Positions 7,064 to 43,477 of a stretch of DNA of 45,176 nt are shown here, piece after piece. Source of the DNA: Escherichia phage vB_EcoS-22664BS2. How positions within the stretch are numbered: the stretch's first letter is position 1; every line of letters starts with the position of its first letter. The notes below the pieces were generated by a model. The model ran no database searches, was not told the origin of the DNA, and saw nothing but the letters and a program-made list of their open reading frames with translations. The translations under genes were made by a program, and so were the position numbers. The stretch lies in the sequence record NC_073324.1. One strand, given 5' to 3'.

Positions 7064-7085
7064 GACCAACAACAGAGATAAAATT

Positions 7086-7110
7086 AAGGCCCCATAAGGG
7101 GCCTTTTTAT
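7086..7110. terminator. terminator between portal (+) and a minus-strand small gene
   Basis: GGCCCC-ATAA-GGGGCC hairpin followed by TTTTT; sits between convergent genes. Confidence 0.6.
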
Positions 7111-7392
7111 CTATACAAATGTAAATCCAGTGCTGGTAGCGGTGTAACTGGTGGCGCCGTTTTTCGTTTCGGGCCAACAGATATACGAGCGCCCGCGATA
7201 CTCTACCCACCAAAGTTCCACATCGGAGTCCCCGTTAGGTCTAGTCAACCACCCGTGGTGTAGCCAATACTTGCGCCCTATTTTAAATATATCTTCTTCA
7301 CTGGAAGTCCACTCCTGAGCGACACACTCTACCTGAACGCTATCAACACATACACATGTAAGATATAAATCACTGTTTGAATATTTAGCCAT
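7111..7392 (-). CDS. hypothetical protein (93 aa), moron-like insert in head module
   Basis: Internal ATG at codon 37 of track ORF; own promoter and RBS; opposite orientation to flanking structural genes. Confidence 0.5.
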   Translation of the reverse strand: MAKYSNSDLYLTCVCVDSVQVECVAQEWTSSEEDIFKIGRKYWLHHGWLTRPNGDSDVELWWVEYRGRSYICWPETKNGATSYTATSTGFTFV

Positions 7393-7427
7393 TTCTAAAT
7401 TCCTTATCTCTCGTTTCGATGCAATGA

Positions 7428-7456
7428 ATAGTACCCTATTATGTTGGTGTCTGCAA
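7428..7456 (-). promoter_or_regulatory. sigma70-like promoter (TTGCAG-N17-TACTAT) for 7111..7392
   Basis: Read on minus strand; member of the conserved promoter family. Confidence 0.5.
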
Positions 7457-7500: not shown

Positions 7501-8544
7501 ATGAGCTTACTTACATCGCTAATCAGCCACCAGATATGGCTGCAACGCACCGCATCAGGTGAAGTGAAAGACCTCGCACCGTTCATTCAGGAAATGCGAG
7601 ACGAAATCAAACGGCAGGTGCTGTTATTCGGCGACGACGGGCGAAGCACAGCGCGGCTGAATAAACTGTTACGCGACCTTGAAGAAGCACTGACCGGACT
7701 TACGGGCGACTGGCGGACAAAGCTGACAGAAGACCTTAAGGAACTTGCCGCGTATGAGGCCGAGTGGAATGCAAAGACACTGACGACTAACGTTAACGCG
7801 GAATTTGTTACGCCTACCGCTGAACAGGTGTGGGCCGCCGCCGAGTTTCAACCGCTCTCACTGAGCGACAAACCAGTTGATTTCACCAAGCTGATGTCAG
7901 GCTGGGGTGAAACCGAAGTCGCGCGCCTGGTAACCGGCGTTAAGATGGGTTTTGTACAAGGTCAGACCACACGGCAGATTGTCAAAGAAGTGGTCGGTAA
8001 AGGTGGGCTGGCTGACGTATCAGAGAAATATGCAGCTACAGTAATCCGTACCGCGCTGTCTCACGTATCAAACGAAGCCCGTAACGAGACGTACCGCCAG
8101 AACGACGACATCATTGAGAAATACGAATGGGTGTCGACGCTGGATAGCCGTACCAGTACGATTTGCAGAGCCAGAGATGGAATGACGTGGGCGATTGGAA
8201 AAGGGCCGATGCCCCCAGCACATCCGAACTGTCGAAGTACCACTGCGCCGGTAATCAGTTCAGAGTTCGACTTCCTCGATAAAGGCGCAAAACGAGCGGC
8301 TAAGGGCGCGGACGGCGGTACTCAGGTAAGCGCGGACACCACCTATTACGAGTTCCTTAAACAACAACCGGCATGGTTCGTGGATGAAGCACTCGGCCCG
8401 GTGCGAGGTAAGATTTTCCGTAACAGCGGTATATCGCCGGAAGAGTTTCGCGTAATATCTGTAGATGGTTTCGGGCGTCCGCTGACTATTAAAGAGATGG
8501 CGGAACTCGATAAACGTGTTGCTGATTATCTGAAAGAGGTTTAG
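7501..8544 (+). CDS. head morphogenesis protein (Mu F / SPP1 gp7-like)
   Basis: ATG with AGGAGGG RBS (codon 21 of track ORF); conserved PAHPNCRS segment; follows portal. Confidence 0.75.
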   Translation: MSLLTSLISHQIWLQRTASGEVKDLAPFIQEMRDEIKRQVLLFGDDGRSTARLNKLLRDLEEALTGLTGDWRTKLTEDLKELAAYEAEWNAKTLTTNVNAEFVTPTAEQVWAAAEFQPLSLSDKPVDFTKLMSGWGETEVARLVTGVKMGFVQGQTTRQIVKEVVGKGGLADVSEKYAATVIRTALSHVSNEARNETYRQNDDIIEKYEWVSTLDSRTSTICRARDGMTWAIGKGPMPPAHPNCRSTTAPVISSEFDFLDKGAKRAAKGADGGTQVSADTTYYEFLKQQPAWFVDEALGPVRGKIFRNSGISPEEFRVISVDGFGRPLTIKEMAELDKRVADYLKEV

Positions 8545-8547
8545 TTT

Positions 8548-9006
8548 ATGGGCTTTTTCAAAGTAACTGATGTACCTTCGCGTCGCGTAGTCCAGTACGC
8601 CCGCGTGTCTGGCTCTGGTGAGAACGTGGTGTTTATTGAAGACGAAAGTGTACTTGGTACACCAGTAGACGATATGCCGTTTGCAGACAAGACTGGCATT
8701 GCGCTACCAGCGGCGGGTATGCTTTATGAAATCCCGTATCTGGCTGACGCAGGCGATGTGTATTTCTCTGTACAACCGCAGGACGTTGAACTGGCAGATG
8801 GCAGCGCAACTATCACTGTCGAAGTTAAGGCGGGTAAATCCCCCTATGCACTGGCCTGGTACAAAGACGGCAAGGAAGTAGTAAACGCGCCCGAAGAGGC
8901 TTTGTCTCTGACGGTTAACGCGGTCGGTGAATACTTCGTTAAAGTTACCGATGCTGATGGTGTAGAGGCTGTCAGTAAAGCTGCGAAGGTCACTAAGCCC
9001 GAATGA
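8548..9006 (+). CDS. Ig-like domain protein (possible head decoration protein)
   Basis: C-terminal I-set-like segment ALAWYKDGKEV...GEYFVKVTDADG. Confidence 0.45.
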   Translation: MGFFKVTDVPSRRVVQYARVSGSGENVVFIEDESVLGTPVDDMPFADKTGIALPAAGMLYEIPYLADAGDVYFSVQPQDVELADGSATITVEVKAGKSPYALAWYKDGKEVVNAPEEALSLTVNAVGEYFVKVTDADGVEAVSKAAKVTKPE

Positions 9007-9007
9007 T

Positions 9008-9036
9008 AAAAGGCCCCATTAAGGGGCCTTAGTTTT
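9008..9036. terminator. bidirectional terminator between convergent genes
   Basis: AAAGGCCCC...GGGGCCTT hairpin with T/A runs on both sides. Confidence 0.6.
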
Positions 9037-9239
9037 CAACGGAATCTTGTGTTTAAATCCTGCTCGTGGACGACCCTCAGAACAGTGTCATAATCCCCGT
9101 ATCTTCCAGGTTCAAATATATCTAATGCCTTGTAAGCAGACATTGCGTCAGGGAAAACCTGCAGAACCTTTTTAACACGGCACAAGTCACCGTCGAACTC
9201 TTCATCGAACTCTTGAACTACTTCGCAAATTGCATACAT
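9036..9239 (-). CDS. hypothetical protein (67 aa), moron-like
   Basis: ORF track; own promoter, GGAGGTG RBS and terminator. Confidence 0.5.
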   Translation of the reverse strand: MYAICEVVQEFDEEFDGDLCRVKKVLQVFPDAMSAYKALDIFEPGRYGDYDTVLRVVHEQDLNTRFR

Positions 9240-9266
9240 TTTTCACCTCCTGCTTAAGTTAACTGA

Positions 9267-9295
9267 ATAGTACCCTATTATATTGGGGTGCGCAA
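9267..9295 (-). promoter_or_regulatory. sigma70-like promoter (TTGCGC-N17-TACTAT) for 9036..9239
   Basis: Conserved promoter family. Confidence 0.5.
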
Positions 9296-9361
9296 ACTAT
9301 TTATTCGACTATTCCAGTTATTCCGCTCAATTGTAAATGTTGGAATAAACTATTCGAATAG

Positions 9362-9390
9362 TTGACTTTTCACTGAAAATGTGCTAAGCT
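9362..9390 (+). promoter_or_regulatory. sigma70-like promoter with extended -10 (TTGACT-N17-TGcTAAGCT) driving ncRNA candidate 1
   Basis: Same promoter architecture repeated at 41851-41879. Confidence 0.5.
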
Positions 9391-9393
9391 CCA

Positions 9394-9597
9394 CCTGAGC
9401 TTGTGAAGTATGAACAAGCGACCGCGGCGCGGGCAGGTAACGGAGCGGGACGTAAGTCCTGAGTGTAGTTACGCTGACGCGTTCGGAAGGGCCATAGTCT
9501 ATTGCTTGTGTAAAAAGTAACTGGTTTACTGAGATTACGCCGTTTCTATGTTTAAATGATAAGGACTAGCGCCCCGCTTTATGGCGGGGCTTTACTT
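9394..9597 (+). ncRNA. candidate structured non-coding RNA, copy 1
   Basis: Promoter upstream and hairpin plus T-run terminator at 9569-9597; first 38 nt identical to 41883-41920, rest aligns with indels. Confidence 0.4.
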
Positions 9598-9614
9598 ATC
9601 GAGAAAGGAGAAAC

Positions 9615-10001
9615 ATGAATCTTAAAGCAACTGTCGTAGCGGGAGCATGTTTCATCATCCTGGCTTACACACACGGCATCTACCAGTACCGCATCGGCTG
9701 GAACGAAGGCCGGGCGAATCTCGTTTCTCAGCAACAGCAGAAAGCACAGGCCGAGATGACTAAGAAAACACAACGGCAGCAGCAGGACGAATCAAAGGCC
9801 GCAGCCGCTGACAACGAAGGCAAGACGAAATCAGAGGTGATCACCCGTGAAGTCGTTAAGTACATTAAAACGCCTGGTCGCAGTGTGTGCGCTTTTGACC
9901 CTGAGCGCGTGCAGCTCAAGTCCCGCGCCGTCGCAAACGCCAACTCCATCCCCGGATACGACGATGATGCAGCCGCCGTGCAAACTGGCAGCGCCAAGTA
10001 G
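9615..10001 (+). CDS. i-spanin (Rz-like)
   Basis: N-terminal TM segment, then Gln/Ala-rich coiled coil; AAGGAG RBS. Confidence 0.6.
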   Translation: MNLKATVVAGACFIILAYTHGIYQYRIGWNEGRANLVSQQQQKAQAEMTKKTQRQQQDESKAAAADNEGKTKSEVITREVVKYIKTPGRSVCAFDPERVQLKSRAVANANSIPGYDDDAAAVQTGSAK

Positions 10002-10110
10002 CGACGCGGACGAGGATTTAGCTATCGACGTTCAGAACGCCGAATGCGTACGGCAACTGAGGCTGAAAGTGTTCATGTTGCAGGATTACGTGAGGAATAT
10101 TCTGGAATAG
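9847..10110 (+). CDS. o-spanin (Rz1-like lipoprotein) in +1 frame overlapping the Rz-like gene
   Basis: Signal peptide with lipobox LSAC, Pro-rich mature region; starts inside the Rz-like ORF and ends beyond it. Confidence 0.55.
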   Translation: MKSLSTLKRLVAVCALLTLSACSSSPAPSQTPTPSPDTTMMQPPCKLAAPSSDADEDLAIDVQNAECVRQLRLKVFMLQDYVRNILE

Positions 10111-16354: not shown

Positions 16355-16380
16355 AAGGCCCCTTTCGGGGCCTTTTTCTT
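16355..16380. terminator. bidirectional terminator
   Basis: AAGGCCCC-TTTC-GGGGCCTT hairpin plus T-run, between convergent genes. Confidence 0.6.
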
Positions 16381-16933
16381 ACAAACCTAATTTTAAAGCA
16401 ATGTCTATAACGTTCGATTTAACGTCACCCGGTATGATGTAGGTGTCGTAATCTTTTACACCACTAACATCGTACAGATAGCCACGGCTATCGCAGATGA
16501 ACGTATAGCCGTCACGATGGAGGCGGACGATTCGCACGTCATGCCCCGCGGCGACGATAGGGGCAACTTCACTGGCGAATCCACCATCGGACACTACAAA
16601 AACTTCGTCGCCGTCAGGCAAGTTTTCAGCAAGATACTTACCGAAATAATCATCGCCGAATACCGGTTTAATGAATTGCTCAGAAATGGCAATCATTAAC
16701 CGGCGGCGGGACAACCCATTAAGAAAACCCTCGGGTTTTTCTTTCCGCGCCCGGTCGTCGTAGCCGTCGAGAAATTCGTGGTAAGCATCCTGGCCTAACG
16801 CTGCCAAAGCAATATTGAACATTGGATTCTTGAAACTGGTAGTTCCTTTCGCAAAGCCCATTTCTACCAGCGCCATAGCAAGCGTGTCTTTCCCGCAACC
16901 CGCAGGGCCATTAAGAATAATTACCTTAGCCAT
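16379..16933 (-). CDS. P-loop nucleotide kinase, dNMP-kinase-like
   Basis: Walker A GPAGCGKDT and overall layout resemble T4-type deoxynucleoside monophosphate kinase. Confidence 0.55.
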   Translation of the reverse strand: MAKVIILNGPAGCGKDTLAMALVEMGFAKGTTSFKNPMFNIALAALGQDAYHEFLDGYDDRARKEKPEGFLNGLSRRRLMIAISEQFIKPVFGDDYFGKYLAENLPDGDEVFVVSDGGFASEVAPIVAAGHDVRIVRLHRDGYTFICDSRGYLYDVSGVKDYDTYIIPGDVKSNVIDIALKLGL

Positions 16934-17421
16934 TATTTATCGCTCCCGTGTGGTTTTAAGTGTGTAGAGTTCCCGTTACAGTCGTATTCGGTAACTGCGT
17001 GTGCGGTTATGCCGAGGTCACGGAAATGCTTTATTACCGCTGGAGAGTCGTCGAACGCACACAAGATTCTTTCCAGTCCGAAAGCACGCAACACCTCTTC
17101 TTTAATTACGATGTCTTTTCTGTTGTCGTGTTTGCTGCGCATGATTAGCGTGTCAAACCTAACGTTATTCTCTCGTAACCATTCGCGAGTCTCCTCCTCA
17201 GCGTCATCACTTCGCCCGGTAAGGATAATTATAGTAAGTCCGGAATGCCACAGTACGCTACACAAATGGATATTGTCGTATATCGGAGCGTCATCTTTGC
17301 AGGCCATGTTAAATGGCTTCCACGCCCACGTTTCTCCGTAGTTATCTTTTGGTAACAGGTGTAAGCGATGGGTACCGTCGGCCAATGTCCCGTCTAAATC
17401 GAAAATTACAATATCTTTCAT
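16933..17421 (-). CDS. HAD-superfamily phosphatase (nucleotidase or 3'-phosphatase-like)
   Basis: N-terminal FDLDGTL motif (DxDGT); small capless HAD. Confidence 0.6.
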   Translation of the reverse strand: MKDIVIFDLDGTLADGTHRLHLLPKDNYGETWAWKPFNMACKDDAPIYDNIHLCSVLWHSGLTIIILTGRSDDAEEETREWLRENNVRFDTLIMRSKHDNRKDIVIKEEVLRAFGLERILCAFDDSPAVIKHFRDLGITAHAVTEYDCNGNSTHLKPHGSDK

Positions 17422-18548
17422 CCCAGCATCTCCGGTGAAATAGTTAAACGTGCGACCTCGCCATATTCGGCGCTATAAGTAATTACATTTGCACTGCGGC
17501 CCGACATCCATCCGCCGCGAGAGGCGTAGGCGTCTTTAGCCGCTAAGGTGCGGTGTTGCTCAACAATCATGTTACGGCTTTCTACAATCTTCTGGTGGTG
17601 CAGATGGCCTACGTGGGCGTAGCTGTAAACACTCTCGCCGAACGCTTTACGGAACTTGGCAATCATAACCGGTTCGATAGCGTCGAATCGTGCTTTATGC
17701 CCGTGATGGAAGAACAGCGTCGTTTTGCCGTGTTGCACCATCTTGTAAACATCCGGCGACGTATCAACAATCACTCGGCTGTCGTTTGAGTATAAAACCG
17801 TGAACATTTCGGCAAGCCATACGGAGCCAACAGGGTCGTGGTTACCTTGAACGATTAAAAGTTTTACTGTGTGATGCTTAACCAGCGCCATATCAACAAC
17901 ACGGCGGACCATACGAATCATGTAACGTACCAGTTTCTGATAGCGAGTATCCGCATCTAATACATGGCGCGACTCGGGGGTAACGGCATCAAGACTATCG
18001 AAGTGTGCGAAGTCCCCAAGCAGGTTAATAACTCCTGTTCCTGCATCCGGTGCTTTCTGAAACGCCGCGTCGAACCACCGAGAGAACAGGTCTTCTGCAA
18101 TCTTCATGTCCCAGTCGTCGCCGCTCTCATCGGCCCATGCCAGCATACCGAGATGGAAATCAGATACAGTGTAAAGATTGAGTAGCTTGTCGTCACGTTT
18201 GGCGCGCGCCGCTTTAACAGGCGCAACGGGCGTAATCTCTGACTTCATGCCCTCTATTACGGCTTTCATCAATTCAACCTGACGTTCGGCGTCGGTATCA
18301 GTCTTAACCCATTGCAACTTAGTGTTGCCGAACTCGTCCACAAGTGACGACGTTCCTTTAATCTTGTAGCCGTCTGGCACAAGGTGGCTAACGTCGCGCC
18401 CGTGGCCCACGCCTTTCTTAGCCAGCTTCGCTTTACGGATACGAATTACGCGGTCTGAGATGCCGTATTTACGGGCGATATCTACATTCTTCATACCGGC
18501 GTTCAATTCTTCCTGCAACTGTTCGTCGGTTATTTTCTTCCGGGCCAT
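17418..18548 (-). CDS. metallophosphoesterase with N-terminal HTH domain
   Basis: Calcineurin-like motifs DFH, GDFAHFD, GNHD, HHGH, GHLHH; N-terminal segment NVDIARKYGISDRVIRIRK is HTH-like. Confidence 0.6.
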   Translation of the reverse strand: MARKKITDEQLQEELNAGMKNVDIARKYGISDRVIRIRKAKLAKKGVGHGRDVSHLVPDGYKIKGTSSLVDEFGNTKLQWVKTDTDAERQVELMKAVIEGMKSEITPVAPVKAARAKRDDKLLNLYTVSDFHLGMLAWADESGDDWDMKIAEDLFSRWFDAAFQKAPDAGTGVINLLGDFAHFDSLDAVTPESRHVLDADTRYQKLVRYMIRMVRRVVDMALVKHHTVKLLIVQGNHDPVGSVWLAEMFTVLYSNDSRVIVDTSPDVYKMVQHGKTTLFFHHGHKARFDAIEPVMIAKFRKAFGESVYSYAHVGHLHHQKIVESRNMIVEQHRTLAAKDAYASRGGWMSGRSANVITYSAEYGEVARLTISPEMLG

Positions 18549-18585
18549 GTTTATTCCTCGTGCTTAGGATTTGTCCTATACTAGC

Positions 18586-18777
18586 TCACTTCTCTTTGAC
18601 ATTCGAGTTGCAAGCCCAGATTAAAATAAATACCCACGGCAGCAGAACCCATCCAAGAAACAGATTAGCCATGAATATCGCTAATTTCGCTTTATGGTCG
18701 CGCATATGCGCCACGAGAAATGGAATAAAATAAACTAAAACGATAATGATTAAGAAGAACATAGTAATACCCGTCAT
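18586..18777 (-). CDS. small membrane protein, superinfection-immunity-like
   Basis: ATG at codon 47 of track ORF; two TM segments; NLFLGWVLLPWVFILIWA resembles the Imm family signature (from memory). Confidence 0.4.
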   Translation of the reverse strand: MTGITMFFLIIIVLVYFIPFLVAHMRDHKAKLAIFMANLFLGWVLLPWVFILIWACNSNVKEK

Positions 18778-18818
18778 GGTGTAGCTCCTGTTTGGGATAA
18801 CATCGTTGGTGTAAGTGA

Positions 18819-18847
18819 ATAGTACACTATTATATTGGGGTGTGCAA
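18819..18847 (-). promoter_or_regulatory. sigma70-like promoter (TTGCAC-N17-TACTAT) for the minus-strand cassette
   Basis: Conserved promoter family. Confidence 0.5.
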
Positions 18848-31895: not shown

Positions 31896-32180
31896 CTAAC
31901 TATAATAGTTCGCTATTAGGTCGTCAACCTGTTTAAACGAACCAACGACAAAAACATTTGCACCGCGTTTACGGAATCTTTCATGCTCGCGTAACTGGTG
32001 GGGGTCAGGCTTCGTGTTTTCGTCTTTCTTAATCTCGACGAACCAGATGATACCGCCGGGGAGAATTACCAGCAGGTCCATGGCGGCTCGCCGGCCTTCA
32101 AATGCCATCTTGCGAACGAGGCCACCAATGGCCTCGAATCGCTCTTTTGCGTATTTCTGAATCTTGCCTTCCGGGGTCAT
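31896..32180 (-). CDS. VRR-NUC nuclease
   Basis: DLLVILPGG...FVEIKK pattern (PD-(D/E)XK core). Confidence 0.6.
   Translation of the reverse strand: MTPEGKIQKYAKERFEAIGGLVRKMAFEGRRAAMDLLVILPGGIIWFVEIKKDENTKPDPHQLREHERFRKRGANVFVVGSFKQVDDLIANYYS
31899..31927 (-). promoter_or_regulatory. sigma70-like promoter (TTGACG-N17-TATAGT)
   Basis: Conserved promoter family; lies in the 3' end of the upstream gene. Confidence 0.45.
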
Positions 32181-38293: not shown

Positions 38294-38322
38294 CTTTTCT
38301 AAAATAATTAATATGGTACTAT
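38294..38322 (+). promoter_or_regulatory. extended -10 promoter (TGgTACTAT) for XRE regulator
   Basis: TGn plus TACTAT; weak -35. Confidence 0.45.
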
Positions 38323-38353
38323 TCACATATCAACTGACTAAGGAGTAATTGAC

Positions 38354-38569
38354 ATGCAACCATCTGAACTAGGTATCCGTGTAGAACAACGCCGTAAAGA
38401 ACTCGGCATCTCCCAGCGCCGTTTGGCGGCCCTGACCGGCGTTTCCCAGGGCGCGATTAACCAACTGGCACTTGGAGTAACTCAGGACGTCCGCCCGGCA
38501 ACGCTGTTCAAACTGGCGGAAGTTCTGGAAGTAGACGCCAAGTGGCTGGCGTTAGGTGAAGGGGCTTAA
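38354..38569 (+). CDS. XRE-family HTH transcriptional regulator (Cro/CI-like)
   Basis: ELGISQRRLAALTGVSQGAINQL helix-turn-helix signature. Confidence 0.65.
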   Translation: MQPSELGIRVEQRRKELGISQRRLAALTGVSQGAINQLALGVTQDVRPATLFKLAEVLEVDAKWLALGEGA

Positions 38570-42147: not shown

Positions 42148-42176
42148 TTGCACACCCCAACATAATAGGATACTAT
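42148..42176 (+). promoter_or_regulatory. sigma70-like promoter (TTGCAC-N17-TACTAT) for early operon
   Basis: Conserved promoter family; leader ATCGAAACGAGACAGAGGAG. Confidence 0.55.
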
Positions 42177-42210
42177 TCACTTATCGAAACGAGACAGAGG
42201 AGTGAGGGTT

Positions 42211-43335: not shown

Positions 43336-43418
43336 CATTTTTGTTCTATTTCACCAAACGCAACAATCGAAGCGACTATTGCAGGAGATGCAACAATACA
43401 AACACCAATAAAATTTAC

Positions 43419-43447
43419 TTGCACGCTGAGATGGAATAGGCTACTAT
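43419..43447 (+). promoter_or_regulatory. sigma70-like promoter (TTGCAC-N17-TACTAT)
   Basis: Conserved promoter family; leader ACGAGAGGAGAGACAGAG. Confidence 0.5.
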
Positions 43448-43477
43448 TCATTCACACAAACGAGAGGAGAGACAGAG

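Follow-up and report, generated by a model that had tools for sequence, protein, structure and literature searches.

A reverse-oriented and probably exchangeable accessory cassette among the head genes of a Kagunavirus

The genome of Escherichia phage vB_EcoS-22664BS2 (NC_073324.1; we analyzed all 45,176 nt, which we call the window) has a small ORF whose orientation is opposite to that of the late genes around it. The initial annotation, which was made from the sequence alone, proposed that this ORF is a moron that is flanked by a promoter and a bidirectional terminator, and that it is probably expressed early and independently of its neighbors. Is the ORF a real gene, does it belong to an autonomous unit, and what might its product do? 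The features that we discuss are listed in Table 1.

Table 1. Positions of the cassette, its parts, and related features (window coordinates)
Feature	Position	Strand	Details
Whole cassette	9007..9309	-	Replaces the plain terminator (about 35 nt) of relatives with an empty slot
67-aa ORF	9239..9036 (stop codon included)	-	ATG start; from the ORF list; same as Bas76_0006
Shine-Dalgarno sequence AGGAGGTG	9251..9244	-	4 nt upstream of the ATG; read from the sequence
Terminator hairpin AAGGCCCC-TTAAT-GGGGCCTT	9010-9030	both	Terminator scan and folding
Conserved 33-nt block TTTGCGCACCCCAATATAATAGGGTACTATTCA, putative promoter	9264..9296	-	Recurrence and alignment
Palindrome AATAGGGTACTATT, candidate operator	9266..9279	both	Overlaps the -10 element
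Hoc-like gene	8548..9006	+	Left neighbor of the cassette
Sister cassette, slot 1	7064..7447	-	Promoter block 7425-7447; 93-aa ORF 7392..7111; terminator 7086-7105
Third reverse-oriented unit	16355-18838	-	Same promoter class; AAGGCCCC...GGGGCCTT terminator at 16355-16374; inside the tail-gene module
Copies of the 23-nt core CCAAnATAATAGGGTACTATTCA	7425-7447(-), 9264-9286(-), 18816-18838(-), 42157-42179(+)		Four copies in the window
Promoter class copy	42157..42179	+	Precedes a plus-strand cluster of small ORFs (42202 onward)
Sites of palindrome AATAGnnnnCTATT	1419, 7427, 9266, 9357, 18818, 31904, 35460, 38266, 38310, 42164, 43277, 43435, 44491		Up to one mismatch
Promoters of homologs			Geezett TTGACG-17-TAGAGT; Shemara TTGCAT-17-TATAGT; L103 TTGTAT-17-TAGTAT; L104 TTGACT-17-TATCTT

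The cassette and its slot

By nucleotide comparison, 186 phage records match the region 8500-10100 of the window. The closest (93-94% identity) are the E. coli siphoviruses Bas70-76, DUEC01, phiEc3, and NTEC3, and the window is a Kagunavirus genome (Guernseyvirinae). The phage is virulent, so the cassette is not expressed from a prophage. In Bas76, the order of the genes is portal, head morphogenesis (MuF-like), Hoc-like head decoration protein, the minus-strand hypothetical gene Bas76_0006, a 36-aa hypothetical protein, Rz-like spanins, scaffold, and major head protein. Since the 67-aa ORF is annotated as Bas76_0006, it has already been deposited, as a hypothetical protein, in several genomes.

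We confirmed the minus-strand ORF of 67 amino acids, with its ATG start, as well as the strong ribosome-binding site that had been described for it. On the other side of the ORF, a hairpin with an 8-bp, G+C-rich stem lies 5 nt past the stop codon; it is also 4 nt past the stop codon of the Hoc-like gene. The folding energy of the hairpin is -16.3 kcal/mol on the plus strand, where the U-tract UUAGUUUUC follows it, and -17.0 kcal/mol on the minus strand, where the U-tract is UUUUAUCAUU. The U-tract on the strand of the cassette is the better one. (Our terminator scan reported this hairpin for the minus strand only.) Because the hairpin folds on both strands, with a U-tract on each side, it is plausibly bidirectional, in agreement with the initial annotation. 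It would give the ORF a factor-independent terminator of its own, directly downstream.

To see what occupies this place in related phages, we surveyed the gap between the Hoc-like and spanin genes (slot 2) in 43 Kagunavirus loci. In 9 of the 43 loci, the slot is empty: there is just the conserved backbone and a plain plus-strand terminator (AAAAAGCCCCTTTCGGGGCTT), so that the cassette is inserted between genes that in these relatives are directly adjacent, with the terminator alone between them. Each of the 34 occupied loci has one minus-strand unit, and overall, these units represent at least 13 unrelated cargo families. The slot is 608 nt long in the window, as compared to 339-343 nt in relatives with an empty slot, and the backbone sequence ends at ...GGAATAACTGGAATA (9310), next to the cassette. 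The comparison of presence and absence thus upholds the claim that the unit is a moron.

The 67-aa gene is the cargo of slot 2 at 5 loci, and a 173-aa clamp-like protein is the cargo at 9 loci. Other loci carry one of two types of DNA adenine methyltransferase (N6_N4 and D12 Dam), a protein similar to endonuclease VII/HNH, or a membrane protein of 70 aa; a predicted lipoprotein and several small orphan ORFs are also among the cargoes. The flanks of the cassette are conserved, upstream as far as the start codon and downstream from the stop codon. More precisely, the cargoes are preceded by ...AAATAGTTTGCnnACnCCAAnATAATAGGGTACTATT and by one of two or three types of leader, which reaches the start codon, and the terminator sequence TAAAACTAAGGCCCCnnnnGGGGCCTTTTA begins directly at the stop codon of nearly all of them. 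In the alignment of cassettes, unrelated cargoes have the leader CAGTTAACTTAAnCAGGAGnTGAAAAATG in common, and the 173-aa cargo is found with two different leaders (L031 vs. L002).

A second site (slot 1) is the gap between the portal and MuF-like genes. Of 45 relatives, 26 have no cargo here, and the others have cargoes in the same frame. Its cargoes include the 173-aa protein, a methyltransferase, a 57-aa orphan ORF, and homologs of the 67-aa gene (in Salmonella virus VSt10, or L008; in L099; and in metagenomic Kagunaviruses). Four cargo families, including the 67-aa gene, are found in both slots. Across the two sites, more than 20 different genes appear between the same standard flanks in related phages. 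Both slots are filled in the window, and most of the relatives that we surveyed have at least one empty slot. The window's cargo in slot 1, a 93-aa ORF, has no match in Pfam, PHROGs, NCBIfam, or PADLOC.

The 173-aa protein is the commonest cargo of both slots (L002, L020, L022, and others in slot 2; L003 and L029 in slot 1). Its names in the databases conflict: it is called either a DNA polymerase III sliding clamp or a RusA-like resolvase. It matches PHROG 3007 strongly, but the central domain of the beta clamp only weakly (Pfam E = 0.008).

The ORF sits inside the head-gene module, so we considered whether its product could be an accessory for head assembly or decoration that is tied to the MuF-like, Hoc-like, scaffold, and capsid neighbors. 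This is very improbable, as most of the close relatives with these head genes lack the 67-aa gene, methyltransferases and nucleases can take its place in the slot, and homologs elsewhere lie after DNA polymerase or in early regions. The opposite orientation of the gene and its own promoter and terminator also argue against a role in the head.

The region 9007-9300 is 98.3-99.3% identical to the cassettes of four relatives (L001, L011, L012, and L045); for the Hoc-like gene next to it, the identity is just 86-89%. The base composition of the cassette is also unlike that of the surrounding genes: the G+C content is 42% in the cassette and 44% in the ORF, but 51% in the Hoc-like gene, 55% in the spanin gene, and 50% in the genome as a whole. 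Together, the contrast in identity and the low G+C content show that the cassette has probably been exchanged horizontally, by recombination in the common flanks, both between phages and between slots.

The 67-aa gene and its protein

An ORF of 67 codons is not, by itself, above what is expected by chance, because the ORF list for the window has many spurious ORFs of that size. We therefore rely on three other kinds of evidence for coding: the strong ribosome-binding site, the conservation of the length, and dN/dS. Over the pairs that we compared, dN/dS was 0.11-0.34; for example, it was 0.30 against a 79%-identical homolog and 0.11 against the homolog from Salmonella virus VSt10. For more distant pairs, synonymous sites are saturated, with dN of 0.3-0.6, and the length of 67 codons is maintained through this divergence. 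Among the 12 unique coding sequences, 11 have 67 codons, and the exception, from Shemara, has 64. The low ratios indicate that the ORF is under purifying selection.

Alternatively, the ORF might be incidental, and the terminator and an antisense or divergent promoter might regulate the Hoc-like gene or the adjacent non-coding transcript. The position of the terminator does seem to be ancestral, since empty slots keep a terminator there, and the promoter region of the cassette abuts the divergent promoter of the predicted transcript at 9362-9598. But an incidental ORF would not be expected to have dN/dS of 0.1-0.3, to retain 67 codons (64 in Shemara) in spite of saturated synonymous change, or to have a strong ribosome-binding site and a confidently predicted fold. 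It would also not be expected to have homologs in unrelated contexts that lack the flanks of the cassette. We give this explanation hardly any weight.

The adjacent region (9362-9598, plus strand) has a divergent sigma-70-like promoter, TTGACT(9362-9367)-17-TAAGCT, and then a predicted transcript of about 205 nt. This transcript would end at a strong terminator (9571-9590), just ahead of the spanin gene. The region is conserved in 43 of 43 relatives and has a minimum free energy of -70.6 kcal/mol (z = -2.4), with no match in Rfam. Of 41 distinct sequences, about 10 have a truncation, a frameshift, or no start codon in the 36-aa ORF that is annotated here in Bas76 (window 9410..9520), and the region therefore probably does not encode a protein.

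How widespread is the 67-aa gene? Using tblastn, we found it in 31 phage records, including 18 Escherichia Kagunaviruses (84-100% identity) and Salmonella and Klebsiella phages with identities down to 44%. Large protein collections add only about 20 clusters. Overall, the family is small and limited to phages, with 23 representatives among 1.8 billion proteins. A search of IMG/VR with the family alignment found just 3 loci, none of them beyond those that we had already collected. Family members, at 44-100% identity, include Bas76_0006 (XPK43669.1), VSt10 gp04 (A0A385EGZ4), Geezett_007, and Shemara_072. (We rejected a larger representative, P0029, with 5 matched stretches, because it is a repeat protein and the match looks spurious; we set aside three other larger representatives, P0036, P0038, and P0039, on the assumption that they are similar.) The gene has no match in 5,426 complete genomes of E. 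coli or in 72,556 plasmids, so it appears to circulate among virulent phages only.

The initial annotation had implied that a real gene should be conserved among close relatives. This needs to be divided in two. The locus is not conserved: it is patchy, as a moron would be. The gene, on the other hand, is strongly conserved wherever it is present.

The protein is predicted to be small (7.9 kDa) and acidic (pI 4.5, with a net charge of about -6). It is soluble, with no signal peptide or membrane segment. An AlphaFold2 model built with 19 homologs has pLDDT of 86 and pTM of 0.68. In the model, a long beta-hairpin (residues 2-29) is followed by helices at 32-41 and 44-47 and by a third strand at 53-58. 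The loop PGRYGDYDT has lower confidence in the model and varies in length across the family, and the C-terminal ...FR is invariant.

These features did not link the protein to a characterized family. It has no match in Pfam, NCBIfam, or PADLOC; a profile search against the sequences of PDB chains found nothing; and when we compared the model to the PDB with Foldseek, nothing was significant. Rfam gave nothing at the gathering thresholds, with a single match at the level of chance (E = 0.66). PHROG 27256, whose function is unknown, is a weak full-length match (E = 4e-4, 21.4 bits). In BFVD, the model matches uncharacterized phage proteins only, with a TM-score of 0.94 to the VSt10 protein. We also found no likeness, in sequence or in fold, to characterized anti-defense proteins (anti-CRISPRs, Ocr, and similar).

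All seven of the BASEL Kagunaviruses (Bas70-76) carry the 67-aa gene. These phages were described as highly sensitive to restriction-modification systems, so a broad anti-restriction activity is unlikely. In Klebsiella phage vB_Kpn2-P2 (L007), the gene directly upstream of the homolog (2524-2985) is annotated as an RNA ligase, and it has a below-threshold match to the anti-CBASS protein Acb1 (E = 1e-3, and 19 bits instead of the cutoff of 27). This match is the only hint of anti-defense in the neighborhood of the gene, and a faint one.

Another possibility is that the protein is a factor for superinfection exclusion or for competition between phages, which guards the infected cell from other phages. 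The predicted lipoprotein and the small membrane proteins in the same slots look like exclusion factors, and expression before the late genes would fit as well. But the 67-aa protein is acidic and soluble and lacks a signal peptide or a membrane segment, and there is no homology in favor of this role. To our knowledge, the exclusion proteins of virulent coliphages are envelope proteins, which also counts against it. We consider exclusion to be improbable.

Instead, we suggest that the protein binds or inhibits a protein of the host or of a defense system, and that it is dispensable and not expressed late. We propose this biochemical role with low confidence, because of the protein's size, charge, dispensability, and patchy distribution, and because of the cargoes that co-occur in the slots.

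The promoter class and the timing of expression

Within the conserved 33-nt block, the predicted promoter elements are a -35 of TTGCGC (9295..9290), a 17-nt spacer, and a -10 of TACTAT (9272..9267). Transcription is predicted to start near 9260, which would give a leader of about 20 nt. TTGCGC-17-TACTAT is the sole reading of the block with the proper geometry for sigma-70, and it agrees with the sigma-70 consensus at only 7 of 12 positions. The block is missing from empty slots, and it would give the cassette its own promoter, directly upstream.

We rejected two other readings of the block. If TATAAT (9283..9278) were the -10, there would be no -35-like hexamer 16-18 nt upstream of it, and the conserved TTGC would fall inside the spacer. 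And if TTTGC were similar to the MotA box of T4, we would expect a MotA-like or AsiA-like gene, which is not among the annotations. We also noticed a promoter-like sequence in the conserved backbone (TTTACA-18-AATAGT; 9308-9337, minus strand). It is kept in relatives with an empty slot as TTTACA-18-AATAAT, and transcription from it there would run directly into the terminator. Since our scan showed no excess of such sites, the match may be due to chance.

The block is one of a class. Its 23-nt core occurs four times in the window, as compared to 0.00 times expected from shuffled sequence, and alignment of the class members gives the conserved block TTGCnnACnCCAAnATAATAGnnTACTATTCA. A looser search adds 43433-43450 (plus strand; this copy covers about 43414-43450) and possibly 38308-38325 (plus strand), so the genome seems to have five or six members of this class. 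In 44 cassettes from the two slots, the columns of TTTGC..C.CCAA.ATAATAGGGTACTATT are at least 90% conserved.

Part of the block is a palindrome, AATAGnnnnCTATT, which has 13 sites in the window (allowing one mismatch) where about 1 would be expected. In Bas76, it has 7 exact sites, as compared to 0.01 expected, and these are in equivalent places. Of the 13 sites in the window, 12 are at promoter-like or intergenic positions, and the other (44491) looks intragenic. With respect to the -35 and -10 elements, the sites fall into three registers. The palindrome overlaps the -10 element in the cassette's promoter class and a -35 element at 1419 and 9357, and in the replication module, it fills the spacer of three minus-strand consensus promoters, TTGAC(A/G)-17-TATAGT, at 31927, 35483, and 38289.

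According to the initial annotation, the cassette's promoter belongs to the same family as the early promoters. Our results agree, in two ways: the block recurs at 7447(-), 18838(-), 42157(+), and 43435(+), and the three consensus promoters in the replication module contain the same palindrome.

Between two of the palindrome sites lies a gene for a 71-aa HTH_3 protein of the Cro/CI type (38354..38569, plus strand). This protein would be the obvious candidate to bind the palindrome. The palindrome and the Cro-like gene resemble a genome-wide pair of operator and regulator.

Two papers on Kagunavirus genomes reported seven PHIRE sites, and in one of them, the motif tgAATAGTa-ccTATTat-T was named as promoters for a phage RNA polymerase (PMC9825357). 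We rejected this label, as the annotations of Bas76, a close relative, include no gene for an RNA polymerase. For the same reason, we read the motif as promoters for the host polymerase, combined with a phage-specific operator.

When would the cassette be expressed? Since it has the opposite orientation to the late genes, as well as its own promoter and terminator, we agree with the proposal that it is expressed independently of them. Its promoter class also precedes the third reverse-oriented unit (18.8-16.36 kb), which has genes for nucleotide metabolism, and the plus-strand clusters of small ORFs that start at 42.2 and 43.5 kb. Kinases, phosphatases, exonucleases, and clusters of small ORFs are types of genes that are normally expressed before the late genes. 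Outside of the Kagunavirus-type cassettes, the homolog is the first gene behind a sigma-70-like promoter in four genomic contexts (Table 1). For example, it may be found after DNA polymerase A and before an SNF2 helicase, or at the start of a run of small ORFs that follows the endolysin gene, or beside the weakly Acb1-like gene and before a primase. In other genera, homologs usually sit in early or replication regions. We infer that the cassette is probably expressed early, or at least before the late genes. An RNA-seq study of the Kagunavirus K1B4 had coarse time points and 57 called genes, none of which was called in the slot of the cassette.

The third unit itself encodes an SbcD/Mre11-like exonuclease (376 aa), a protein with a polynucleotide kinase/phosphatase domain (162 aa), and a dNMP-kinase-like P-loop protein (184 aa). 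The 162-aa and 184-aa genes are absent from Bas76, so this unit is variable too. Its kinase/phosphatase pair might be for counter-defense by RNA repair.

On the other hand, the conserved spacer could imply that a phage factor is needed, which would make the promoter a middle promoter rather than an early one. More broadly, the cassette might be a real accessory unit that is expressed at middle or late times, with a 33-nt block that is factor-dependent and is switched on by a phage protein at the palindrome. Within the weak -35, TTGC alone is conserved, while there is hardly any variation in the spacer and the palindrome, and the register of this class differs from that of the consensus promoters (TTGACA-17-TATAGT). 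However, no gene for an activator or for remodeling of sigma factor is among the annotations of Bas76. Also, the same class precedes genes for a kinase, a phosphatase, and an exonuclease and clusters of small ORFs, which are typical of pre-replicative genes, and the homologs elsewhere have ordinary sigma-70 promoters. Middle or late expression is a serious alternative, but on this evidence an unlikely one.

A proposed mechanism and its relation to known systems

Overall, we think that 9007-9309 is probably an autonomous, exchanged accessory cassette, or moron, whose product is a small acidic protein that would bind a component of the host or of its defenses. The architecture and the mobility of the cassette are well supported.

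If so, the host's RNA polymerase with sigma-70 would start at TTGCGC-17-TACTAT, near 9260. The resulting mRNA would be monocistronic and about 250 nt long, and it would combine a short leader with a strong ribosome-binding site. Transcription of the cassette would stop at the hairpin at 9010-9030. The same hairpin would also end the rightward transcription of the Hoc-like gene, and it would shield the head genes from antisense RNA. Through the palindrome over the -10, this promoter class is probably switched by a DNA-binding protein of the phage, for which the Cro-like HTH protein (38354..38569) is the candidate. The product would be a cytoplasmic, single-domain alpha/beta protein of 67 residues, acidic, and dispensable for the virion and for replication. 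Most likely it would act stoichiometrically, by binding and blocking a host protein, which might be a component of an antiviral defense or a target for host takeover. New cargoes would spread by homologous recombination in the common flanks (the promoter and leader on one side and the terminator on the other), between phages and between slots.

A broader idea is that the Guernseyvirinae have a plug-and-play platform, with two (possibly three) fixed docking sites in the late operon. Each site would have the standard promoter with its operator, a leader, and a bidirectional terminator, and a common pool of genes for counter-defense and competition would be swapped through these sites, from phage to phage and from slot to slot. 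The 67-aa protein would then be a hitherto unrecognized inhibitor, with a new fold, of a bacterial immune or housekeeping protein. This is possible, but we are doubtful of it and offer it as speculation.

Although the principle (morons and PeSL-like shuffling, discussed below) is established, and the 67-aa gene alone is an orphan, the frame of the cassette flags over 20 accessory genes of Kagunavirus and Jerseyvirus, unrelated to each other, as exchangeable units with independent expression. It thereby gives a short list of candidates for screens for counter-defense or host takeover in the tractable BASEL phages. The standard promoter, leader, and terminator could also be natural insertion sites for the engineering of small therapeutic siphoviruses.

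Among known proteins, the product is similar to AcrIC8, AcrIF9, Ocr, and Ugi in its size, acidity, dispensability, and patchiness, and its gene is similar to theirs in lying in accessory hot spots and in a promoter-proximal position.

The morons of lambdoid and HK97-type phages were reportedly described by Juhala, Hendrix and colleagues in 2000. Like those morons, the cassette is an extra gene that separates two neighbors of relatives and has a predicted promoter and intrinsic terminator to itself; and like them, it has an atypical base composition, lies in the late structural region, and is probably dispensable. As far as can be judged from sequence, every feature of a moron that we could check (the insertion, the promoter, the terminator, and the base composition) is present. 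Unlike those morons, the cassette is found in a virulent phage and is antisense to the operon, and many different cargoes occupy one standardized frame of promoter, leader, and terminator at fixed sites.

The PeSL (promoter-early stem-loop) cassettes of T4-type phages are repeats of a sigma-70-like promoter and a stem-loop terminator. PeSLs bracket non-essential orphan genes and lie where insertions, deletions, and replacements between close relatives begin and end, a pattern that implies that homologous recombination shuffles these genes (PMC2839356, PMC4122927). In our cassette, too, the repeated promoter and stem-loop motifs coincide with the edges of indels or replacements when close relatives are compared. 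The systems differ in that the motifs are not the same, the phages are siphoviruses of the Guernseyvirinae, and the promoter and the terminator flank a single ORF instead of forming a composite element. Also, the cassettes lie in two discrete slots in the late operon, while those of the T4-like phages are in hyperplastic regions. The cassette is an analog of the PeSLs and not a member of that group.
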